Shown piece after piece: positions 1 through 23,149 of a stretch of DNA of 32,000 bases; position 1 is the first letter of the stretch; each line of letters begins with the position of its first letter. The notes under the pieces were generated by a model, which saw nothing but the letters and a program-made list of their open reading frames with translations, did not search any database and was not told where the DNA came from. The translations under genes and the position numbers were made by a program. This stretch comes from Pelagirhabdus alkalitolerans (GTDB taxonomy: Bacteria > Bacillota > Bacilli > Bacillales > Amphibacillaceae). The DNA lies in contig NZ_FMYI01000012.1 in assembly GCF_900096905.1 (NCBI RefSeq), forward strand, positions 15,180 to 47,179, read 5' to 3'.

Positions 1-1221
1 GATACAGCTGAAAAGACGCTGTTTAATATGAAAGACTTAGAAAAAAGCACTGGATTGAAACGGTCGTGTTTGAAGCACCCCAATGGCGAATCGATTACGA
101 TTGAATACACAGTTAATCAAATACGATCACAAAATAATGAAATGTTAGGCATCGTTTTTGTATTTCGTGATATTTCAGAACGAATAAAAAAAGAAGAAGA
201 AGTAACGTTTCTTAGCTTACGGGATCAATTGACGGGTCTTTATAATAGACGCTATTTCATTGAAATGATGAAAGAGTTAGATAGAAGCGATCAAATGCCG
301 ATTAGCATCATGATGATTGATGCTAATGGTTTGAAATTAATGAATGATGTATTCGGTCATAAGGCTGGAGATGAGCTTCTGCAAAAAATCGCTAGCTATT
401 TAACTCAGCATTCAAGAGAACACGATATAGCTTTTCGCGTTGGAGGCGATGAATTTGTTTTACTCCTACCGAAAACACCTCTTATTCAAGCTGATATGTT
501 AATGAAAAAAATTGATAAAAGCGTTAAGCAAGATAAAACGCATTTTCTTCCTCTTACGTTATCGATTGGTTTAGCGACTAAGAAAAATGAGGAAGATGAT
601 ATTTACCGAATCTATCGACAAGCTGAAGACCGTATGTATATTAAAAAGATGAGTGAGCGAACAGAGTTAAGACATGACATGATCGATAAGATTATCGATC
701 AATTACACGATCACATTCCAAATGAACGTGATCATGCGAATGAAGTAAGACGTTTATCAACAGATTTAGCTAAAAGGATCGGGATGTCTGAGGATCAACA
801 AAAGGAAATTGCTCAAATCGCTTGGTTTCATGACATTGGTAAAATTGTTTTATCTAAAGATTTATTGTTAAAATCGTCACCTCTAAATCGAGAGGAAGAG
901 CACCAACTGAAGCGCCATCCTGAAGCAGGATACAGCATATTAAGTGCTGTTAATCATTACGCGTCTTTTGCGGATCCAATTCTATCGCACCATGAAAAAT
1001 GGGATGGAAGCGGCTATCCAAAAGGATTAAATCAAGATCAGATCCCTTTATATGCAAGAATTATTGCCATTACAGAATCTTATGACCAAATGAGACGCGA
1101 CCAACCCTATCGAAAAGCTCTATCTTCAAAGGAAGCTAAACAAGTATTAATTGAGCAAAAAGGAAAGCAATTTGATCCTGAATTAGTGGATGAATTTATT
1201 CAACACGTTTTAACTAAATAA
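1..1221 (+). CDS. PAS(partial)-GGDEF-HD-GYP c-di-GMP turnover protein; 5' end probably cut by the window edge
   Basis: Frame 1 is open from nt 1, with no stop before the ATG at 28. The first residues look like the C-terminal part of a PAS domain (LGIVFVFRDISERIKKEEE). GGDEF signature is RVGGDEFVLLL, with an RxxD I-site (REHD) 5 residues upstream. HD-GYP signatures are WFHDIGK and HHEKWDGSGYPKGL. Confidence 0.85.
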   Translation, partial: DTAEKTLFNMKDLEKSTGLKRSCLKHPNGESITIEYTVNQIRSQNNEMLGIVFVFRDISERIKKEEEVTFLSLRDQLTGLYNRRYFIEMMKELDRSDQMPISIMMIDANGLKLMNDVFGHKAGDELLQKIASYLTQHSREHDIAFRVGGDEFVLLLPKTPLIQADMLMKKIDKSVKQDKTHFLPLTLSIGLATKKNEEDDIYRIYRQAEDRMYIKKMSERTELRHDMIDKIIDQLHDHIPNERDHANEVRRLSTDLAKRIGMSEDQQKEIAQIAWFHDIGKIVLSKDLLLKSSPLNREEEHQLKRHPEAGYSILSAVNHYASFADPILSHHEKWDGSGYPKGLNQDQIPLYARIIAITESYDQMRRDQPYRKALSSKEAKQVLIEQKGKQFDPELVDEFIQHVLTK

Positions 1222-4583: not shown

Positions 4584-5999
4584 ATGTTCGGATTAAAGCT
4601 TAAAAGCCTAACAAAACGCATTTTGTTAGGCTATTTTTTTTACGTTGTTATAACAGGTGTGGTGATGTTTTGGTTACTTCAGCCAACCGAAGTAAAGGTA
4701 GGGTCAACGGATGATCTTTCTTTTCGTGAAACAGATGAAAAAGTGGCATCGATTGATGAAAGAGATGATGCGTTTAAAGTACGATTAGATTTAATAGAAG
4801 CGGCTGAAGAGTCACTTGTAATGAGTTATTATGCGATGCAAGGTGGCTATACCGTTGATTTATTTTATGATGCTATTTTAGAAGCAGCCGAACGCGGTGT
4901 TGACGTTCGGTTTATGATCGATGGTATTTTCCATAACATGCGCTTTCAAGATCGTCACATTGAACATATTTTTAATGAGCATCCTAACATTGAGCTTGCT
5001 TATTATGAGCGATTTTCTTTTTTGAAGCCGTGGTCATGGCACAATCGGTTACATGATAAATTTATGATTGCAGATGAGAAAAAAGCTTTGATTGGTGGTC
5101 GGAATATAGGTGATAAATATTTTGCAGATGATGGTGTAATGACAGTGTCTAATGATCGAGATCTGCTTATCATCAATCCAAACAATCGTGAACCAGTTAT
5201 TATTCGGGATATGCTAAATTATTTTGATTACGTATACGAGAGTGACTATGTTGAGGTTCAGTCAAATAGTCGGCTGGCTTCGATCAATGACCGTAGAGCT
5301 AAACGTTATAAAGATGATTTAAAGGAACGTACGCAACAATTAAAAAATGAGTATAACGATTTTTTTGAAGAAAGCATTCATTGGTCTGATGCTGCACGTC
5401 CTGTCAAACGGGCTGAATTTGTTCACAACTCGATTGATCGATTTTATAAACAACCTCATGTTCTTAGACGTCTGCTACTGCAAGCTGAAAAAGCGAACGA
5501 TTCATTAATGGTTCAAACCCCTTATTTAATTCCAACACGACCACTCAAAGAAAAAGTTGAAGCAATGAACATTGATCAGCTAAATAAAGCCGTTTTAACA
5601 AATAGCTTAAGTGCTACTTCAAATATAATGGCACACAGTGGTTACCGTAATCACCGTAAGAAACTTAAAAATTCAGATGTTACACTCTATGAATATCAAG
5701 GTCCTGACTCATCGTTGCATATGAAGACATGGCTTTTTGATCAAGATGTAGCGGCGGTCGGTTCGTTTAATGGTGATGCAAGGAGTACTTATTTAAATAC
5801 AGAGTCGATGTTAATCATCGAGAGTCCAGAGTTAGTAGCAGATATCCATGACTATAATCATGCGTCTTATCTTAGTAATAGTTTGACCGTTGATAATCGA
5901 GGGAAGAATGAGGTAAGAGAAGATGAAAGCCCTTTATCCAAAAAGGTAATGACATGGCTTATTCGTCCGATTGCAAGAGGGATTGCTTATTTACTCTAA
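4584..5999 (+). CDS. Membrane-anchored phospholipase D superfamily protein with two HKD motifs
   Basis: AAGGAG RBS and an N-terminal TM segment (ILLGYFFYVVITGVVMFWLL). First HKD motif is HDKFMIADEKKALIGGRNIGD; second is HMKTWLFDQDVAAVGSFNGD. Confidence 0.85.
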   Translation: MFGLKLKSLTKRILLGYFFYVVITGVVMFWLLQPTEVKVGSTDDLSFRETDEKVASIDERDDAFKVRLDLIEAAEESLVMSYYAMQGGYTVDLFYDAILEAAERGVDVRFMIDGIFHNMRFQDRHIEHIFNEHPNIELAYYERFSFLKPWSWHNRLHDKFMIADEKKALIGGRNIGDKYFADDGVMTVSNDRDLLIINPNNREPVIIRDMLNYFDYVYESDYVEVQSNSRLASINDRRAKRYKDDLKERTQQLKNEYNDFFEESIHWSDAARPVKRAEFVHNSIDRFYKQPHVLRRLLLQAEKANDSLMVQTPYLIPTRPLKEKVEAMNIDQLNKAVLTNSLSATSNIMAHSGYRNHRKKLKNSDVTLYEYQGPDSSLHMKTWLFDQDVAAVGSFNGDARSTYLNTESMLIIESPELVADIHDYNHASYLSNSLTVDNRGKNEVREDESPLSKKVMTWLIRPIARGIAYLL

Positions 6000-6023: not shown

Positions 6024-6689
6024 ATGCAGACACTGGAAGATATAAAACTAGCTTATGAAGAAGCCTTACTAAATGGGAAAACAAGAGAGGGCTATGAATT
6101 AATTCAAGAAGCGCTCAATGAAGGACAATCGTTAATTGATATTTATTTGATCATAGCTGAAGCGATGTATAGTATTGGTGACTTATGGGAAACCAATGAT
6201 ATTTCGATTGCGCAAGAACATGCGGCGACCGCTATTACACAGTTTGTTCTCACACAAATAAGTGCCGAATCCATCAAACACTATAGTCCACTAGATACAA
6301 AAGCCTTCATTTTTTCAATTGAGTCCAATACGCATTACTTAGGTATTCAAATGATTAAAAGTGTTTTTAATGTGTATGGTATTCAGACATTTGATTATGG
6401 TCCTAATGTTCCCAATACAGACATCGTAAATGAAATAAGTGAAAAACAACCACATTATGTTGCCTATTCTGTCTCAATGCCTGATCATATTGACAAAGCT
6501 AAACAGTTAAGCCAAATGATAAGAGAATGTCCGACGGGGACTTCACCGATGATTATTATAGGAGGGTATGCATTCGTAAAAGAGCCTCATTTGTTGGAAC
6601 AAGTCGATCACGATTATTATTTCCCTACTATTTTGGAATTAGAAGACTGGTTGAGAGAACAGACTAACATGATACCATCAAACACATAA
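6024..6689 (+). CDS. Stand-alone cobalamin-binding protein (B12-binding_2 helical bundle plus Rossmann B12-binding domain), CarH/AerR-like, with no DNA-binding domain
   Basis: W-x9-EH motif (DLWETNDISIAQEH) in the N-terminal helical part. A THYLG segment sits where (D/E)xHxxG occurs. IIIGGYAF is a GG motif late in the Rossmann fold. Length is 221 aa. Confidence 0.7.
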   Translation: MQTLEDIKLAYEEALLNGKTREGYELIQEALNEGQSLIDIYLIIAEAMYSIGDLWETNDISIAQEHAATAITQFVLTQISAESIKHYSPLDTKAFIFSIESNTHYLGIQMIKSVFNVYGIQTFDYGPNVPNTDIVNEISEKQPHYVAYSVSMPDHIDKAKQLSQMIRECPTGTSPMIIIGGYAFVKEPHLLEQVDHDYYFPTILELEDWLREQTNMIPSNT

Positions 6690-6709
6690 TCAACTTGGGG
6701 GCGACGAAG

Positions 6710-7633
6710 ATGCAAAACAATCGTGAATTAACAATGGAATCGATGCATCATTTATTTAATCAAGCACAACTATCATTGTTTCTAGTGAATCTTGATGGAT
6801 CCATTCTAAAGAAATATGGTTATGCACAGTTTCAGCTTGAGGCTGAATTAAACTCCATTTATCAAATTGTTGATAATCATTCGAAAAATCGATTAGAAAA
6901 AATATTGAAGGATGAGAAGAAAGAAGGAACGACAGATATTTATCTGTTAAGTTCAACGCACCCAGCTGCTTTTTTTCTAACGTATGTAAAAGAACAAGAT
7001 TTAGTCTGGCTTTTTATTCTACCGTATCCGCCAGAATATTCTCAAATGGTATCTAATATGCTTGATGCTAATGCAGAGTTGACTAAACTGTATGAGCAAA
7101 AAATTCAACTTGAATATGAGCTTAAACATCATATGAAAGAGCTAGAGAAATTAAGTATTACAGATCCTTTAACTGGTTTGTACAATCGTCAATATTTTTA
7201 TGATTATGTCAATGAGAAACTTGAGTCTAGAGATAGTTGGCAAATGTTATCGTTAGTGATGATTGACTTTAATGATTTCAAGAAGGTCAATGATCAATAT
7301 GGTCACAAAACGGGTGACTATTTATTAAAAGAGTTCGCTCACATTATACAATCACAATGTGACATGGCGTTTCGTTTTGGTGGCGATGAGTTTGTAGTGG
7401 TATCAGTTGATCTGTCGCACGATGTGATTAAAAAACGTCTTGATCATATAAATCGATTGTTTTCTCAAAAAACAGAAATTGTTTCATTGTCATACGGCAT
7501 TAGTTCTATTTCTAAGGATAAAGCCGGTCAGATTGGTACTAATCAAGATATTGATCATTATTTAAGATTAGCAGATCAAGCGATGTATCGTTATAAACAA
7601 GCATATAAAAATAACTCGAAAGAAATGGATTAA
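6710..7633 (+). CDS. Diguanylate cyclase (PAS-like N-terminal domain, coiled linker, GGDEF)
   Basis: LTGLYNRQYF, DFNDFKKVNDQYGH and RFGGDEFVVV. There is no RxxD I-site (SQCD occupies that position). The ORF track starts at TTG 6695; ATG 6710 has better spacing from GGGGG. Confidence 0.85.
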   Translation: MQNNRELTMESMHHLFNQAQLSLFLVNLDGSILKKYGYAQFQLEAELNSIYQIVDNHSKNRLEKILKDEKKEGTTDIYLLSSTHPAAFFLTYVKEQDLVWLFILPYPPEYSQMVSNMLDANAELTKLYEQKIQLEYELKHHMKELEKLSITDPLTGLYNRQYFYDYVNEKLESRDSWQMLSLVMIDFNDFKKVNDQYGHKTGDYLLKEFAHIIQSQCDMAFRFGGDEFVVVSVDLSHDVIKKRLDHINRLFSQKTEIVSLSYGISSISKDKAGQIGTNQDIDHYLRLADQAMYRYKQAYKNNSKEMD

Positions 7634-7654
7634 ATAATTTTCATGTGAAGCCTT

Positions 7655-7679
7655 TAAAATATTTTTCTAAAGCCGATAT
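7655..7679 (+). promoter_or_regulatory. SigmaD-type promoter candidate for flaG-fliD-fliS-fliT
   Basis: GCCGATAT (7672-7679) is a perfect match to the sigmaD -10 element. TAAA at 7655-7658 is a possible -35, but the 13-nt spacer is shorter than the roughly 15-nt consensus I recall. Confidence 0.5.
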
Positions 7680-7717
7680 AAGAACTAAATGGAGAATATA
7701 GAGGAGTTGGCAATGTT

Positions 7718-10059: not shown

Positions 10060-10413
10060 ATGCGTCCGTTAGATCAATTAAAAACAATAACGGATTCTTT
10101 GGAAAACCTTGTGAATAAACCTGTTTCTTCTAAAGATCGTGATATCGTGATTGAACAAATTCAGGATAAGTTAACCCAACGTCAAAAGGTAATCGATCAG
10201 TTAAAAACACCTCAAACTGATGATGACAAAAAGTTGGGGCAAGACATTTTAAAAAAAGATCGAGTAATTCAAGAAAAGGTTCAGGAGTTACTATTAGATG
10301 TCAAAAAAGATATGAATAAACATAAAAAACATAAAAACACATCAACTAAATATTTGAACCCTTACCAACATGTATCGGTAAAAGATGGATCTTATTGGGA
10401 TAAGAAAAAGTAA
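10060..10413 (+). CDS. fliT: FliT-like flagellar chaperone (called by position and composition)
   Basis: The ATG lies 1 nt after the fliS stop. The protein is 117 aa, helical, and rich in K/D/Q. Its position matches B. subtilis fliT, but sequence conservation in this family is low. Confidence 0.6.
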   Translation: MRPLDQLKTITDSLENLVNKPVSSKDRDIVIEQIQDKLTQRQKVIDQLKTPQTDDDKKLGQDILKKDRVIQEKVQELLLDVKKDMNKHKKHKNTSTKYLNPYQHVSVKDGSYWDKKK

Positions 10414-12964: not shown

Positions 12965-13081
12965 GTTAATTTCCTCCCCCTAATTTAATCCTGACTTTAT
13001 TAATCAGAATAATATGCATTAGGATAGCATGAATTTTATAGTCCGTCAATTGATTAAACAAAAAACAATTATATTTTGTTG

Positions 13082-13115
13082 GTTTATACAGGATTTTTAT
13101 AGGGTAATACAGAAT
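13082..13115 (+). promoter_or_regulatory. Overlapping sigmaB-type and sigmaH-type promoter candidates for hpf
   Basis: SigmaB-like: GTTTAT (13082-13087), 14-nt spacer, GGGTAA (13102-13107). SigmaH-like: AGGATTT (13090-13096), 14-nt spacer, AGAAT (13111-13115). Confidence 0.5.
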
Positions 13116-13142
13116 TATAGATATAGAAAGGAGGACACTTTT

Positions 13143-13706
13143 ATGAAATACAACATACGTGGAGAGAACCTTGAGGTGACTGGAGCGATAAAAAGCTACA
13201 TTGAAAAGAAGGTTAGCAAGTTAGAGCGCTACTTCGAAACACCTCCTACATCAGATGTAAACGTTAATTTAAGTGTCTATAATGATGAACAAGAAATTGA
13301 AGTGACCATCCCGATGCCGAATCTTTTACTTCGGGCAGAGGAGAACCACACTGATTTATACGCTGCTATTGATTTAGTAGTTGATAAATTAGAACGTCAA
13401 ATTAGAAAATATAAAACAAAAATCAATCGAAAGAATCGCCAGAAAGGCGCACCAAAACATATCTTTGCAGAGATGGAAAAAGATTTGTTAGAGGGTGAAG
13501 CTGAACAAGAGCAAGAAGATGATAATGGTTTAGAAGTTGTTCGTACTAAACGATTTGACTTAAAACCAATGGATTCAGAAGAAGCGATCCTACAAATGGA
13601 TATGTTAGGTCACTCGTTTTACGTGTTTACAAATGCGGAAACCGGTGATACAAACGTTGTCTATCGTCGTCACGATGGCAAATATGGCTTAATTGAGCCT
13701 AACTAA
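13143..13706 (+). CDS. hpf: Long-form ribosome hibernation promoting factor (YvyD)
   Basis: MKYNIRGENLEVTGAIKSYIEKKVSKLERYF follows a GGAGGA RBS. The C-terminal dimerisation domain includes RTKRFDLKPMDSEEAILQMDMLGHSFYVF. Length is 187 aa. The ORF-track start at 13029 is an unsupported upstream extension. Confidence 0.93.
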   Translation: MKYNIRGENLEVTGAIKSYIEKKVSKLERYFETPPTSDVNVNLSVYNDEQEIEVTIPMPNLLLRAEENHTDLYAAIDLVVDKLERQIRKYKTKINRKNRQKGAPKHIFAEMEKDLLEGEAEQEQEDDNGLEVVRTKRFDLKPMDSEEAILQMDMLGHSFYVFTNAETGDTNVVYRRHDGKYGLIEPN

Positions 13707-16672: not shown

Positions 16673-19180
16673 ATGCGTCGAATGTTAAAGAAGTTATTTG
16701 ACGGAAATCAACGTCAACTAAAAGAAGTACAACAAATTGTTGATCAAATTGAAGCATTAGAACCGGATTATGAGCAATTGTCTGATACTGATTTAAAAGA
16801 CAAAACGGAAGAATTTAAAGAACGTTTTAAAAACGGTGAAACCCTAGATGATTTAATGGTAGAAGCTTACGCGGTCATCCGTGAAGCGTCCAAGCGTGTT
16901 CTTAATATGCGTCCATTTCAAGTTCAGCTGATGGGAGCGATTGTTCTCCATCGTGGTGACATTGCAGAAATGAAAACGGGTGAAGGTAAAACACTTGCAT
17001 CGACTATGCCTGCTTATTTAAATGCGATAGCTGGTAAAGGTGTTCATATTATTACAGTTAACGAATACTTAGCAGATCGTGACGCGAAGGATATGGGCGT
17101 ATTATATGAGTTTTTAGGACTGACTGTTGGATTGAATGTTAACAGTTTAACAAAGGAACAAAAAAGAGAAGCTTATTATGCTGATATTACGTACGGAACG
17201 AATAATGAATTTGGTTTTGACTACTTGCGTGACAACATGGTTCTATATAAAGAACAGATGGTACAGCGTCCACTGAACTTTGCGATTATTGATGAGGTAG
17301 ACTCGATTTTAATTGATGAAGCGAGGACACCTCTAATCATTTCAGGTTCAGCGCGCAAATCAGCGACGTTATATCAACAAGCAAATGCTTTTGTTCGTAC
17401 GTTAGTGAGAGAAGTTGATTATTCATTTGATGAAAAAACAAAAGGGGTTCAATTAACAGAAGAAGGGATTACTAAAGCTGAAAACTTTTTTAATATTAAA
17501 AACTTATTTGATTTAAATCATGTCACACTAACGCATCATATTAATCAAGCACTCAAAGCACACGCTTCTATGCACCGTGATACAGATTATGTGATTGAAG
17601 AAGGCGAAGTTGTCATTGTTGATCAGTTTACCGGTCGTCTAATGAAAGGTAGACGTTATAGTGATGGACTCCATCAAGCGATTGAGGCCAAAGAAGGTTT
17701 GCATATTCAAAACGAAAGCATGACACTTGCTTCTATTACGTTCCAAAACTTGTTCAGAATGTATGATAAGTTAGCAGGTATGACAGGAACAGCGAAAACA
17801 GAGCAAGAGGAATTTAGAAATATATACAATATGGATGTTGTTGCTGTTCCAACGAATAAACCAATTATTCGTGAAGATAAGTCTGATCTTATTTTTAAAA
17901 CAATGGACGGTAAGTTTAAAGCAGTTGTAGCAGATATTAAATCTCGTTATGAGAAAGGTCAGCCGGTATTAGTCGGTACGGTAGCTGTTGAAACATCTGA
18001 AGTGATTTCAAATTACCTTAAAAAAGCAGGCGTTAAACATAACGTGTTAAATGCTAAAAATCACTACCGTGAAGCGGAGATCATCGAAAACGCAGGTGAA
18101 CGTGGATCGGTCACCATTGCGACAAACATGGCAGGCCGTGGTACAGATATTAAACTTGGTGATGGCGTTAAGGAATTAGGTGGTTTGGCCGTGATCGGTA
18201 CCGAACGACATGAATCGCGTCGAATTGACAACCAATTAAGAGGACGTTCCGGTCGTCAAGGTGATCCTGGTCTTACACAATTCTATTTATCAATGGAAGA
18301 TGAGTTAATGAGACGTTTCGGTTCTGACAATATGAAGGCCATGATGGAACGTTTCAAAATGGATGATACACAACCTATTGAAAGTAAAATGATTTCAAAA
18401 GCGGTAGAATCAGCCCAACGCCGTGTTGAAGGTAACAACTTTGATGCACGTAAGAATATTCTAGCTTATGATGATGTCTTAAGAGAACAGCGTGAAATTA
18501 TTTATAAACAACGATTTGATGTGATTGATTCTGATAACTTACGAGATATTGTCATGAATATGATTGAGACAGTTGTTCAAGATGTGGTCTATACGCATAC
18601 ACAAGATGATGACGATGCTAATTGGGATCTAGATGCGATCATTGAATATGTTCATTCGAATCTCGTTGAGTCGAACTACATCACCAAAACAGACATTGAA
18701 AATCAATCACCAGATAAGATGATTGAAGCGATCATGGCTAAAGTTGTTGAAAAATATGATGCCAAAGAAGAAGATATGGGCTCTGAACAAATGCGCGAAT
18801 TTGAAAAAGTCATCCTATTAAAGATCGTTGATACGAAATGGATGGACCATATCGATCAAATGGATCAATTACGCCAAGGGATTCATTTACGTGCATATGC
18901 GCAAAATGATCCGTTACGTGAATATCAAATGGAAGGTTTTGCGATGTTTGAAGCGATGGTTCAAGCCATTAATGAAGATGCATCACGCTATGTCATGAAA
19001 GCGCAAGTTCGAGATAACTTGAAACGTCAAGAAGTAGCAAAAAATGCGACGGCTGTTTCAGGTGATGAAGGTAAAAAACAGAAGAAGAAAACACCATTTA
19101 AAAAGGCAGACAATATCGGAAGAAATGATCCATGTCCGTGTGGAAGTGGTAAGAAATATAAACATTGCCATGGAAAATAA
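16673..19180 (+). CDS. secA: Preprotein translocase ATPase SecA
   Basis: MKTGEGKTL Walker [33 protein letters not shown], and the C-terminal zinc motif [14 protein letters not shown]. Length is 835 aa. Confidence 0.98.
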
Positions 19181-19194
19181 CACATTCAAACACT

Positions 19195-19225
19195 GGGCAT
19201 CCTAAAAAAGGATGTCCTTTCAATT
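19195..19225 (+). terminator. Weak hairpin with a T-tract between secA and prfB (possible partial terminator)
   Basis: gggcatcc, loop taaaaaa, ggatgtcc, followed by tttcaattt. Confidence 0.4.
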
Positions 19226-19243
19226 TATTAGTGAGGTGACGAT

Positions 19244-20345
19244 ATGGAATTAAATGAAATGAAGCATGAAATTGATAAGATGACTAACCGCCTAGCGGAA
19301 TTTAGGGGGTCTCTTTGACTTAGAAGAGAAGCGAACACGGATTGCTGAACTCGAAAATGAAATGACCGATCCTAGTTTTTGGGATGATCAAACCTATGCG
19401 CAAAAAGTGATAGGTGAAGTTAACGGATTGAAAGATTTGGTTCATACGTATGATAAACATTCAGAGACACTTGAGAATTTAGAAGTTAGTTATGAACTCG
19501 TAAAAGAGGAAGATGATGCTGAACTTTATCAAGATCTAGAGGAAGAAATTAAACAATTAGCAAAAGATTTGAATGAATTTGAGTTATTTATGCTGTTAAA
19601 TGAACCGTATGATAAAAATAATGCAATCCTAGAGTTACATCCAGGTGCGGGTGGTACAGAATCACAGGATTGGGCCAGTATGTTACTGAGAATGTATAAT
19701 CGATGGGCTGAGTCAAAAGGATTTAGTGTCGAAACGCTGGATTACTTACCTGGCGATGAAGCAGGCGTGAAAAGTGTGACGTTATTAATTAAAGGCCATA
19801 ATGCATACGGGTATTTAAAAGCTGAAAAAGGTGTTCACCGCCTTGTACGTATTTCGCCATTTGATTCATCAGGACGTAGACATACATCTTTTGCATCATG
19901 TGATGTGATGCCGGAGCTCGATGATGATATTGATATCGATATAAACACTGAGGACTTAAAAATTGATACGTATCGTGCAAGTGGTGCAGGGGGACAACAC
20001 GTCAATACAACAGATTCTGCTGTTCGTATTACACACACACCAACCAATACAATTGTGACGTGTCAGTCAGAACGTTCTCAAATAAAAAATAGAGAACAAG
20101 CAATGAAGCTATTAAAAGGTAAACTTTATCAACTTGAGGTTGAAAAGCAACAAGCCGAGCTAAATGAGATTAAAGGTGATCAGAAGGAGATTGGATGGGG
20201 GTCGCAGATTCGTTCTTATGTGTTCCATCCCTACTCAATGATCAAAGACCACAGAACGAACGTTGAAGTCGGTAATACACAAGCCGTTATGGACGGGGAA
20301 CTTGATCCATTTATTGATGCTTATCTAAGACAACAAATGGATTAA
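19244..20345 (+). CDS. prfB: Peptide chain release factor 2, expressed through a programmed +1 frameshift at 19313-19319
   Basis: The zero-frame [27 protein letters not shown] ends at TGA 19316-19318 within AGG GGG TCT CTT TGA C. The +1 frame continues [24 protein letters not shown] and on to the SPF and GGQ motifs. The ORF track shows only the part from 19362. Confidence 0.94.
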
Positions 20346-21506: not shown

Positions 21507-21579
21507 GTAATAGATTGAGCAGACGAAGCGTTTGTTTCAAAAGATAATTACTATAATTAAATCAAAGGTGATTGAGTTT

Positions 21580-22266
21580 ATGATAGAATTAAAAAATGTC
21601 AAAAAGACATATCCAAATGGTGTAACAGCTCTAAATGGTATTGATATACATATCGATTCCGGAGAATTTGTTTATTTAGTTGGTCAAAGTGGTGCTGGTA
21701 AGTCGACATTTATCAAATTAATATTCCGAGAAGAGATGGCTTCTTCTGGGGACATTTATATTAACAATCGTGATTTATCAACAATGAAATGGAAAGACGT
21801 TCCTCATTTAAGACGTGAAATAGGCGTTGTTTACCAAGATTTCAAATTACTTCCTAAAATGACAGTCTATGAAAATGTTGCATTTGCACTTGAGGTCGTA
21901 GAAGAATCCCCTCGTCAGATTAGAAAACGCGTGATGGAAGTGTTAGATCAAGTTGGACTTAAGAATAAAGCACGTTTTATTCCAGATGAATTATCAGGTG
22001 GTGAACAACAACGTGTTGCGATTGCTCGTGCGATTGCCAACTATCCGAAGTTGTTAATTGCTGATGAACCAACAGGTAATCTAGATCCCGATACATCTTG
22101 GGAAATTATGAAAATATTAGAAGAGATTAACGCAACAGGAACGACCATAATCATGGCAACACATAGTAAAGACATCGTGAATACGATCAAACGTCGAGTG
22201 ATTGCCGTTGAAGGTGGATTAGTTGTACGTGATCAGCATAGAGGTGATTATGGATATGAAGATTAG
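21580..22266 (+). CDS. ftsE: Cell-division ABC ATPase FtsE
   Basis: MIELKNVKKTYPNG follows an [34 protein letters not shown] and LIADEPTGNLD are present. Length is 228 aa, as in B. subtilis. The ORF-track TTG start at 21532 is an extension. Confidence 0.94.
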   Translation: MIELKNVKKTYPNGVTALNGIDIHIDSGEFVYLVGQSGAGKSTFIKLIFREEMASSGDIYINNRDLSTMKWKDVPHLRREIGVVYQDFKLLPKMTVYENVAFALEVVEESPRQIRKRVMEVLDQVGLKNKARFIPDELSGGEQQRVAIARAIANYPKLLIADEPTGNLDPDTSWEIMKILEEINATGTTIIMATHSKDIVNTIKRRVIAVEGGLVVRDQHRGDYGYED

Positions 22267-23149
22267 AACATTTAAGCGTCACTTCAGAGAAGGTTTAAAA
22301 AATACATGGCGAAACAATTGGATGACACTTGCTTCAGTTGCAGCTGTTACGACGACACTTTTACTCGTTGCGACATTTTTAGTTCTTATGTTTAATTTGA
22401 ATCATGTTGCCGATGCATTAGAAGAAGATGTTCAAATGAAAGTCCTAGTTGATTTAACGGCTGATGAAGATGAGACAGAAGCACTTGGTGATGAGTTAAA
22501 CGCGTTAAATAATATTGAAAGTGTAGAATTCTCATCACGTGATGAAGAGTTAGAGGGTCTTATTTCAAGTATGGGAGAGCAAGGAGATTCTTGGGGGCTT
22601 CAAGATGAAGATAATCCATTGAATGATGCTTATGTTGTGCGGGCAAATGAACCGCAAGATACTATTGAAATTGCAGAAGAAATTGAGCAAATGGATTCAG
22701 TAGAACGTGTCAATTATGGACAAGATGTCGTGCAAAACCTATTTACTTTTAACAACTACGCTAGAAATATCGGGCTCGTTTTAATCGTTGCCCTCTTGTT
22801 TACAGCAATATTTTTAATCTCAAATACGATTAAAATTACGATTATGGCAAGAAGACGTGAAATTGAAATTATGAAACTTGTCGGTGCGACGAATTGGTTT
22901 ATACGTTGGCCATTCTTTGTGGAAGGGTTACTACTGGGTGTTTTAGGTAGTATTGTTCCAATCAGTATACTGACGGTTGGGTATTATTATTTAGATCAGA
23001 ATGCTGCGGCAGTTAATCAATTTGAGTTTATTCAAATATTGCCATTCTACCCGTTCATTTTCCAATTAGCAGCGATTATATTAGCAATTGGTGCTGGTAT
23101 TGGTATATGGGGAAGCGTCATGAGTGTCCGTAAGTTCCTTAAGGTGTAA
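22256..23149 (+). CDS. ftsX: Cell-division ABC permease-like protein FtsX
   Basis: MKIRTFKRHFREGLKN and the KLVGATNWFIRWPFFVEGLLLGVLGS block align with Bacillus FtsX. The GAGGTGA RBS is 8 nt upstream. The gene overlaps the ftsE 3' end by 11 nt. Confidence 0.92.
   Translation: MKIRTFKRHFREGLKNTWRNNWMTLASVAAVTTTLLLVATFLVLMFNLNHVADALEEDVQMKVLVDLTADEDETEALGDELNALNNIESVEFSSRDEELEGLISSMGEQGDSWGLQDEDNPLNDAYVVRANEPQDTIEIAEEIEQMDSVERVNYGQDVVQNLFTFNNYARNIGLVLIVALLFTAIFLISNTIKITIMARRREIEIMKLVGATNWFIRWPFFVEGLLLGVLGSIVPISILTVGYYYLDQNAAAVNQFEFIQILPFYPFIFQLAAIILAIGAGIGIWGSVMSVRKFLKV

Follow-up and report, generated by a model that had tools for sequence, protein, structure and literature searches.

A stand-alone, light-type B12-binding protein and its neighbouring diguanylate cyclase: a candidate two-protein module for cyclic di-GMP synthesis in Pelagirhabdus alkalitolerans

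What does a cobalamin-binding protein that carries no output domain of its own do when its gene stands directly before that of a diguanylate cyclase? The question is raised by a 32,000-nucleotide (nt) stretch of Pelagirhabdus alkalitolerans DNA (contig NZ_FMYI01000012.1, positions 15,180 to 47,179; hereafter the window), in which a gene for a 221-residue (aa) B12-binding protein is followed by one for a 307-aa GGDEF protein. A sequence-only reading of the window had assigned the first protein to the CarH/AerR type of B12 photoreceptor and had proposed that it gates the second, linking light or B12 status to cyclic di-GMP (c-di-GMP). Here we argue that the balance tips, if modestly, toward the two genes encoding a two-protein sensory module for c-di-GMP synthesis, composed of a light-type B12 sensor and a cyclase. 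Cyclases controlled by B12 have been described recently, and the pair probably represents a natural version of them built from two proteins.

The open reading frame (ORF) of the putative sensor, on the forward strand, encodes a product 100% identical to a protein of P. alkalitolerans, a low-GC member of the Bacillaceae. Pfam recognizes two domains in it, B12-binding_2 at aa 11-78 (E 2.5e-13, 50.5 bits; gathering cut-off 23) and B12-binding at aa 94-198 (E 1.2e-12, 48.2 bits; gathering cut-off 32.1), and finds nothing beyond these two. The secondary structure of an AlphaFold2 (AF2) model with a predicted local distance difference test score (pLDDT) of 93.1 agrees with this layout. Both the four-helix bundle plus Rossmann arrangement and the lack of a DNA-binding or catalytic domain, as originally read from the letters, are therefore borne out. 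A MerR-type helix-turn-helix is likewise absent: the NCBIfam CarH model, which has a cut-off of 400 bits, scores 29.3 and covers the B12 part alone. From its sequence, the 221-aa protein is predicted to bind cobalamin.

The signature published for light-responsive B12 domains, obtained with SignatureFinder, consists of GxxW, EH, GxxH and GxxxP (PMC11796333). In the window protein, DLWETNDISIAQEH (nt 6186-6221) holds W55, nine intervening residues and E65-H66, the exact W-x9-EH motif that had first drawn attention to this gene. A HMMER alignment to the B12 domain of CtMerR (PDB 8jbs) pairs G52 with G153, W55 with W156, E65 with E166, H66 with H167, H104 with H204, and G126-P130 with G226-P230. 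In the crystal structure of CtMerR, G153, W156, E166, H167 and the G226-P230 stretch touch adenosylcobalamin (AdoCbl), and His204 is the lower axial ligand (PMC11796333). The W55/E65/H66 cap (GxxW, EH) and His104 are invariant across 22 stand-alone relatives of the window protein, as is G126, and P130 is kept in at least 90% of these sequences. The wider comparison gives the same picture for the cap, with GxxW-x9-EH present in all 161 of the nearest proteins (12 close homologues and 149 representatives at 50% clustering).

Among 1.84 billion representatives scanned exhaustively with HMMER, 4796 are related to the B12 protein at E <= 1e-3 but only three at E <= 1e-30, from Streptohalobacillus (58% identity), Gracilibacillus halophilus (42%) and Alkalibacillus almallahensis (41%). 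The second tier (E 1e-28 to 1e-21) is made up mostly of photocobilins: photoglobin-B12 fusions of about 350 aa whose B12 domains follow an N-terminal stretch of some 140 aa that weakly matches phycobilisome proteins. This tier also includes histidine-kinase fusions and about 30 stand-alone proteins. The window protein is therefore best described as a photocobilin-type B12 domain without the bilin half: no photoglobin domain is fused to it, the two B12 domains found by Pfam covering all 221 aa.

Comparison with solved structures leads to the same group. The closest by sequence are SasPcob (8j2w/8j2x; phmmer E 2e-13) and the B12 domain of CtMerR (8jbs; 2.5e-11). A profile built from the 22 stand-alone relatives ranks SasPcob (6e-40), CtMerR (2e-33) and AbDPcob (4e-30) highest in the PDB, followed by corrinoid proteins and methionine synthase (1e-25 to 1e-17), which come after these photoreceptors and ahead of CarH (3e-13) and AerR (5e-11). 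The best Foldseek match of the model is dark-state SasPcob 8j2w (template modelling score, TM, 0.84; root-mean-square deviation 1.9 A), and next come CtMerR (TM 0.82), AbDPcob (0.82) and CarH (0.72-0.74). Sequence and model thus support a light-sensing (CarH/photocobilin) type of cobalamin-binding domain and not a methyltransferase type, in agreement with the sequence-only reading.

The partner gene begins at ATG 6710, with the same start and product in the NCBI annotation (P0167). Its GGDEF domain is matched by Pfam at E 9.7e-33 (113.6 bits) and by TIGR00254 at 1.3e-32, and the motif is intact (FRFGGDEF). Residues D186, K191, N194, D195, R222 and G224-G225-x-E227-F228 are invariant in the cyclase alignment, and D226 is Asp or Glu. 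These are the sequence features of a catalytically competent diguanylate cyclase, which we predict the 307-aa protein to be. The RxxD I-site, an optional and non-defining element five residues upstream of GGDEF, is absent in the window cyclase and its close relatives; SQCD occupies the RxxD position, and the enzyme therefore has no I-site. In this respect too, the first description of the protein was accurate.

The N-terminal part of the cyclase has no Pfam match. In an AF2 model based on 20 homologues (pLDDT 88.7), aa 1-107 form a five-stranded alpha/beta PAS-like domain (helix 2-19; strands 22-27, 31-37, 72-79, 86-95 and 98-105) that leads into a long helix, so that what had been a guess from sequence at a PAS-like N-terminus is upheld by the model. 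The notion that this domain is a disguised photoglobin was rejected, as the predicted fold is alpha/beta and not that of an all-helical globin. Two cyclases with a long-helix linker of this sort, the phytochrome-activated PadC (5llw) and a LOV-activated enzyme (8c05), rank first among the fold matches of the whole chain, and the complex of SiaD and the activator SiaC (7e6g) also figures in the list.

The PAS-like domain resembles the N-termini of other cyclases linked to B12 genes, namely those of G. halophilus (9e-12), Alkalibacillus (9e-9), the homologue P0193 (4e-5) and a metagenome contig (L009; 4e-4). Pairwise similarity is marginal only for P0194 (0.06) and P0180 (0.14), and we therefore claim N-terminal homology just for the former four. 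Among 65 cyclase N-termini, an N-terminal hidden Markov model from the close clade matched P0193 and P0195 alone. A homology search with the N-terminal 147 aa alone returned nothing, the query included, which probably reflects a word-index limit.

The two genes are tightly linked. The B12 gene ends with TAA at 6687-6689, leaving the gap of 20 nt that had been noted from the start, and neither a promoter nor a terminator was detected in this spacer; the genes are therefore presumably co-transcribed. No terminator-like site occurs on the forward strand between 4633 and 10600. Upstream, a PLD-like gene lies just 24 nt from the B12 gene in the window, and all three genes are therefore probably transcribed together. 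The corresponding region in five close relatives is 240-470 nt of intergenic DNA, which leaves room for a promoter of the pair's own.

The PLD-like gene itself (two HKD motifs; 4584-5999, forward strand) lies between a zinc-peptidase gene and the B12 gene and is absent from all five related loci; it looks like an insertion that captured the upstream region of the pair. A perfect 12-bp hairpin followed by a T-run (4605-4632, forward strand) falls within the first 50 nt of the called PLD ORF. This is probably the terminator of the zinc-peptidase gene, with the true PLD start further downstream, for example at Met28 (nt 4665).

If the two proteins work together, their genes should keep company elsewhere, and the survey of related genomes found them adjacent or in one operon across several independent contexts. 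The B12 and GGDEF genes are adjacent in five of five related loci, from three Halolactibacillus species, Streptohalobacillus and a Bacillota metagenome-assembled genome. The region is syntenic throughout these loci and its flanks are remodelled: the PLD-like gene is found in the window alone, a pair of ABC transporter permease and ATPase genes lies between GGDEF and flaG in the relatives alone, and the B12/GGDEF pair is intact. In G. halophilus (L006), the B12 gene precedes and overlaps the GGDEF gene amid unrelated neighbours. In Alkalibacillus (L007), a single operon contains the B12 gene, an HmoA-like ABM monooxygenase, a 130-aa stand-alone photoglobin and the GGDEF gene, the 130-aa protein matching the photocobilin N-terminus at E 8e-11. 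The metagenome contig L009 has the order GGDEF, B12, ABM (63% identical to the Alkalibacillus ABM) and photoglobin.

More distant evidence comes from the contexts of six full-length cyclase homologues with 26-35% identity. For P0178, the Alkalibacillus cyclase of L007, the B12 gene is upstream in the same operon with two small genes between. A B12-binding gene stands immediately upstream in four further distinct contexts: P0193 (L011/L012) lies in the order photocobilin, GGDEF, photocobilin, EAL; P0180 (L015) follows a B12 protein that is cut by the contig end; the start of P0194 (L019) is overlapped by the gene of a 359-aa B12 protein; and P0225 (L020/L021) is preceded by a 160-aa ORF and then a 211-aa B12 protein. 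The contexts of P0025 and P0052 were uninformative, their contigs being too short. The recurrence of the pair amid unrelated flanks implies that the pairing is not due to chance, and there is good genomic support for functional coupling of the B12 and GGDEF genes.

Several of these loci deserve comment in their own right. At L007 5001-7251 (Alkalibacillus almallahensis) and L009 3737-6310, the stand-alone B12 protein, the HmoA-like ABM (of the heme-degrading type), a photoglobin of 116-130 aa and the GGDEF protein are encoded by four separate genes, and these operons may represent a fully split photocobilin-cyclase system, its own bilin-producing enzyme included. The tandem at L011 1299-5593 (GCA_900175145.1) encodes a photocobilin of 376 aa, a GGDEF protein of 327 aa, a photocobilin of 350 aa and an EAL protein of 350 aa, which suggests paired B12/bilin sensors for c-di-GMP synthesis and breakdown. 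Stand-alone B12 proteins of the same clade are also encoded directly upstream of histidine kinases (L016 3626-5807 and L017 715-2964); at one of these loci the kinase has an ABM-like N-terminus, and at the other a 139-aa ORF overlaps the start of the B12 gene. The arrangement of a B12 sensor acting in trans is therefore wider than cyclases, and a B12 sensor gene followed by the gene of a signalling enzyme seems to be a general rule. Small ORFs without a Pfam match lie beside stand-alone B12 genes at L020 2340-2822 (160 aa) and L010 934-1383 (149 aa). Of the two, the L010 ORF was compared with the tested photoglobins and shows no BLASTP similarity to them at E <= 0.01. Either ORF could encode a divergent photoglobin or some other accessory protein.

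How might such a pair work? Hypothetically, the B12 protein would bind AdoCbl, with His104 as the lower cobalt ligand and W55, E65 and H66 capping the adenosyl group. Green or near-UV light would then cleave the Co-C bond, and photolysis would move the helical bundle relative to the Rossmann domain, changing either the oligomeric state of the B12 protein or its binding to the cyclase. The partner would be a dimeric enzyme in which PAS-like domain, coiled-coil helix and GGDEF domain follow one another. Docking on the PAS-like domain or the helix, or release from them, may alter the helix register and thereby allow productive pairing of the two GGDEF domains, so that c-di-GMP synthesis would track light. 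Within this scheme, we infer both that light is the signal and that the B12 protein contacts the cyclase directly. By analogy with AbDPcob, we expect the cyclase to be inhibited in the dark and activated by light.

AbDPcob is a direct published precedent for this scheme. In this fused photocobilin, AdoCbl binding lowers dark cyclase activity and light raises kcat more than 10-fold; isolated photocobilins also act in trans on the isolated cyclase domain in vitro, changing its activity in a concentration-dependent manner and with evidence of a heterodimer (PMC10979010). AbDPcob (Acidimicrobiaceae; PDB 8j2y; Zhang et al. 2024) shares with the window pair a light-type B12 domain with GxxW-x9-EH and the lower His, together with a GGDEF output. 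However, it is a single polypeptide that includes a biliverdin-binding photoglobin, whereas in the window the two functions are on separate proteins, photoglobin is missing and the cyclase has a PAS-like domain and a long helix. SasPcob (Saccharothrix syringae; PDB 8j2w, 8j2x), the closest solved relative, is a stand-alone sensor proposed to act by protein-protein interaction; yet it has 340 aa and a C-terminal biliverdin-binding photoglobin, whereas the window protein is a B12 domain only and has a conserved partner gene. Judged by sequence, then, the window pair is the photocobilin-cyclase system of 2024 in a minimal form, split into two proteins and lacking the bilin.

Other known systems share individual elements. 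AerR/PpaA (PDB 7te2) is likewise a stand-alone combination of B12-binding_2 and B12-binding, and AerR acts on a partner protein and not on DNA, which is what we propose for the window protein. However, it is distant in sequence (see the profile values above, against those of the photocobilins), and its partner is CrtJ/PpsR in purple phototrophs, whereas the window neighbour is a GGDEF protein in non-phototrophic Bacillaceae. CarH/LitR (PDB 5c8d) has the same B12-domain fold, the W-x9-EH cap and a His lower ligand; it differs from the window protein in its MerR domain, in having H132 (TtCarH) where the window protein has Glu, and in an output that is transcription and not c-di-GMP. SiaC-SiaD, PadC and the LOV cyclase share the sensor, coiled-coil and GGDEF architecture, and SiaD provides a precedent for a separate small protein that switches a cyclase by binding its stalk. 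Their inputs, in contrast, are phosphorylation state, bilin and flavin, and none is B12. Finally, the bioinformatic survey of Schneider et al. (2021) described operons in which B12-binding and photoglobin genes are combined with those of signalling proteins, GGDEF proteins and ABM monooxygenases among them (PMC8717448). Like the window locus, these combine stand-alone B12 genes with signalling enzymes, and Alkalibacillus and L009 fit their description exactly. That survey was anchored on photoglobin genes, and the photoglobin-less window locus and its close relatives therefore fall outside it.

Several observations weigh against a light-gated module. The Gly of the published GxxH element is Ser101 in the window protein, and the acidic residue usual before the lower His is Asn102. 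Both variants are common in the clade: among the 160 nearest W-x9-EH proteins in which the lower-His motif was located, Gly stands at -3 of the His in 72 and Asn at -2 in 39, and the position of Ser101 contacts the corrin through its main chain in CtMerR (PMC11796333). The reading of this site as NTHYLG in place of (D/E)xHxxG was thus right as to the letters, although the departure is ordinary variation in the clade. W55 is followed by Glu, not by the His (H132 in TtCarH) behind the bis-His light state of CarH. This His is missing in CtMerR, SasPcob and AbDPcob as well (PMC11796333), and light-state chemistry would therefore differ from that of CarH, as in CtMerR and the photocobilins. As for the genomic argument, the cyclase homologue P0210 (L013) has no B12 gene nearby, and N-terminal similarity to P0180, P0194 and P0225 falls short of statistical support for homology. 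No cobalamin synthesis or import gene is apparent in the window, and an Rfam scan of its whole length found no family at the gathering threshold, neither a cobalamin nor a c-di-GMP riboswitch.

We hold it fairly unlikely that the module senses cobalamin status or redox instead of light, with loading by hydroxo-, methyl- or adenosylcobalamin, or the oxidation state of Co, setting cyclase activity and coupling c-di-GMP to B12 supply or redox. The same gene-pairing evidence applies to this explanation, and the hosts are non-phototrophic halophilic Bacillaceae. AerR has been reported to bind hydroxocobalamin, which implies that stand-alone B12 proteins need not be strict sensors of adenosyl photolysis. 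In AbDPcob, activity drops below the apo level on AdoCbl binding alone (PMC10979010). However, the invariant W-x9-EH cap touches the adenosyl group and separates experimentally light-responsive domains from others, and the photoglobin and heme-degrading genes in related operons point to light. Those same operons bear on an improbable alternative, in which the window pair is a split photocobilin that still requires a photoglobin encoded elsewhere in the genome and works only as a three-protein complex. The nearest relatives by sequence and fold are, after all, photocobilin B12 domains, a separate photoglobin and HmoA-like gene do accompany the pair in Alkalibacillus and L009, and small ORFs of no recognized family precede the B12 gene in L020 and L017. 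Set against this, the 32-kb window holds no photoglobin or ABM homologue (tblastn, all E > 0.4), nor do the loci of the five close relatives or of G. halophilus, where the pair is directly adjacent.

It is slightly less probable again that the two genes adjoin with no functional tie between them, the B12 protein serving some other partner and the cyclase being run by its own PAS-like domain. That domain could bind a ligand of its own, and the fact that the Pelagirhabdus/Halolactibacillus region is wholly syntenic makes adjacency there weak evidence alone. Adjacency recurs, however, in at least seven further contexts with unrelated flanks and variable gene order, and other stand-alone B12 proteins of the clade likewise adjoin histidine kinases. 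A corrinoid methyl-carrier, finally, is what one source's name for the protein ('Methanogenic corrinoid protein MtbC1') would imply, and we regard this as very improbable. There are weak, sub-threshold matches to the MtaC, MtbC and MtgC models, and corrinoid proteins do follow the photoreceptors in the profile search. TIGR02370, the methyltransferase corrinoid model, nevertheless reaches 44.3 bits where 215.3 are required, and every equivalog model stays far below its cut-off, on which ground the MtbC1 annotation was rejected; the window contains no methyltransferase gene, the W-x9-EH photoreceptor signature is fully conserved, and the partner gene encodes a signalling enzyme.

Returning to the reading of the pair as a light-type B12 sensor with its cyclase, what is new in it? 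A fused protein in which a B12 photoreceptor controls a diguanylate cyclase has been known since 2024, and operons of B12, photoglobin and GGDEF genes have been described computationally. Three things appear to be new: a conserved split pair whose sensor consists of the B12 domain and has no bilin module, a dedicated PAS-like domain on the cyclase that accompanies the B12 gene, and the presence of both in halophilic Bacillaceae that are cultivable and not phototrophic. A full-text literature search for a natural two-protein B12/cyclase system yielded PMC10979010 and PMC8717448 alone. The earlier remark that no characterized two-protein system of B12 photoreceptor and GGDEF protein was known needs qualifying: such control has been characterized for fused AbDPcob, and in vitro control in trans of an isolated cyclase domain along with it.

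We also propose, with less assurance and a shade short of an even call, that the locus belongs to an unrecognized, widespread cassette in which a gene for a light-type B12 sensor, with or without a photoglobin, lies directly upstream of a cyclase with a dedicated PAS-like docking domain. In the Pelagirhabdus/Halolactibacillus/Gracilibacillus version of this cassette, the B12 domain alone would gate the enzyme in trans. To date, B12 photoreception has been demonstrated in transcription factors (CarH, AerR-CrtJ) and, from 2024 on, in a single fused enzyme (AbDPcob); the partners with which stand-alone B12 and photocobilin sensors naturally act are a recognized gap in the field (PMC10979010). The locus offers a concrete, conserved and minimal sensor-partner pair of 221 and 307 aa from cultivable bacteria. 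It makes testable whether a bilin-free B12 domain gates an enzyme in trans, which surface is used and what the physiological output is. If our proposal is correct, this would be the first natural two-protein pair of B12 photoreceptor and enzyme, and would provide green-light input into c-di-GMP, and possibly motility, for non-phototrophic halophilic Bacillaceae; a small, trans-acting green-light switch for c-di-GMP would also serve as an optogenetic part. The series formed by the relatives (B12 only; B12 with separate photoglobin and HmoA-like protein; fused photocobilin) represents a natural dissection of the gain or loss of the bilin module. The features of the pair and of its downstream boundary are collected in Table 1.

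Table 1. Features of the B12/GGDEF locus, in window coordinates
Feature	Position (nt)	Strand	Basis or remark
Gene of the stand-alone cobalamin-binding protein; four-helix bundle aa 4-84, Rossmann-like domain aa 93-215	6024..6689	+	ORF, Pfam, AF2, Foldseek
G52-D-L-W55-x9-E65-H66, predicted upper-face (adenosyl-capping) signature of light-responsive B12 domains	6177..6221	+	HMMER alignment to CtMerR 8jbs
E100-S-N-T-H104-Y-L-G107 (ESNTHYLG), lower-axial-ligand loop	6321..6344	+	His104 is the predicted cobalt ligand
G126-P-N-V-P130 (GPNVP), GxxxP signature element	6399..6413	+	Aligned with G226-P-N-T-P230 of CtMerR
Intergenic spacer, 20 nt, with GGGGG ribosome-binding site	6690..6709	+	Sequence
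PAS-like domain of the cyclase, aa 1-107; proposed docking/receiver domain for the B12 protein	6710..7030	+	AF2
Single long helix, aa 108-150; coiled-coil-type signalling linker	7031..7159	+	AF2, pLDDT about 90-97
GGDEF catalytic domain, aa 151-307, and stop codon; GGDEF motif at nt 7379-7393	7160..7633	+	Pfam, TIGR00254
Sigma-D-type (sigma-28) promoter of flaG-fliD-fliS-fliT, TAAA-N13-GCCGATAT; full site TAAAATATTTTTCTAAAGCCGATAT	7655..7679	+	Pattern scan

The genes downstream of the pair are flagellar: flaG, fliD, fliS and then a 117-aa ORF (10060-10413) without a Pfam match, which we call fliT by position and synteny alone. The distance from the GGDEF stop to the flaG ATG measures 84 nt (7634-7717), one less than the 85 nt given at first. 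The sigma-D-type promoter within this interval is the sole match in the window, where 0.01 would be expected by chance, and it marks the downstream boundary of the B12/GGDEF module, itself lying outside it. The proposed link from the cyclase to the flagellar operon fared poorly: adjacency is peculiar to this genome and absent in all five relatives, where the ABC pair intervenes, and flaG has its own promoter. A functional tie drawn from adjacency was therefore rejected. In Bacillus, c-di-GMP has been reported to brake the flagellar motor through a PilZ-domain protein. A motility output of the module is plausible, although this locus lends it no support.

The window encodes a second c-di-GMP enzyme at 28-1221 (forward strand), a 397-aa protein in which GGDEF (1.6e-35) is fused to an HD-GYP-type HD_5 domain (2.4e-34); downstream of its gene come those of an OmpR-type response regulator and a HAMP histidine kinase. 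Streptohalobacillus likewise has a second GGDEF match in the corresponding position (L003 1432-1911), which hints that this enzyme is conserved. The rest of the window is housekeeping in character and free of cobalamin-related genes, with the ribosome hibernation factor gene hpf, secA, prfB and ftsE/ftsX (13029-13706, 16673-20345, 21532-23149). We take this stretch, hpf-secA-prfB-ftsE/ftsX, to resemble the Bacillus region that follows fliT.

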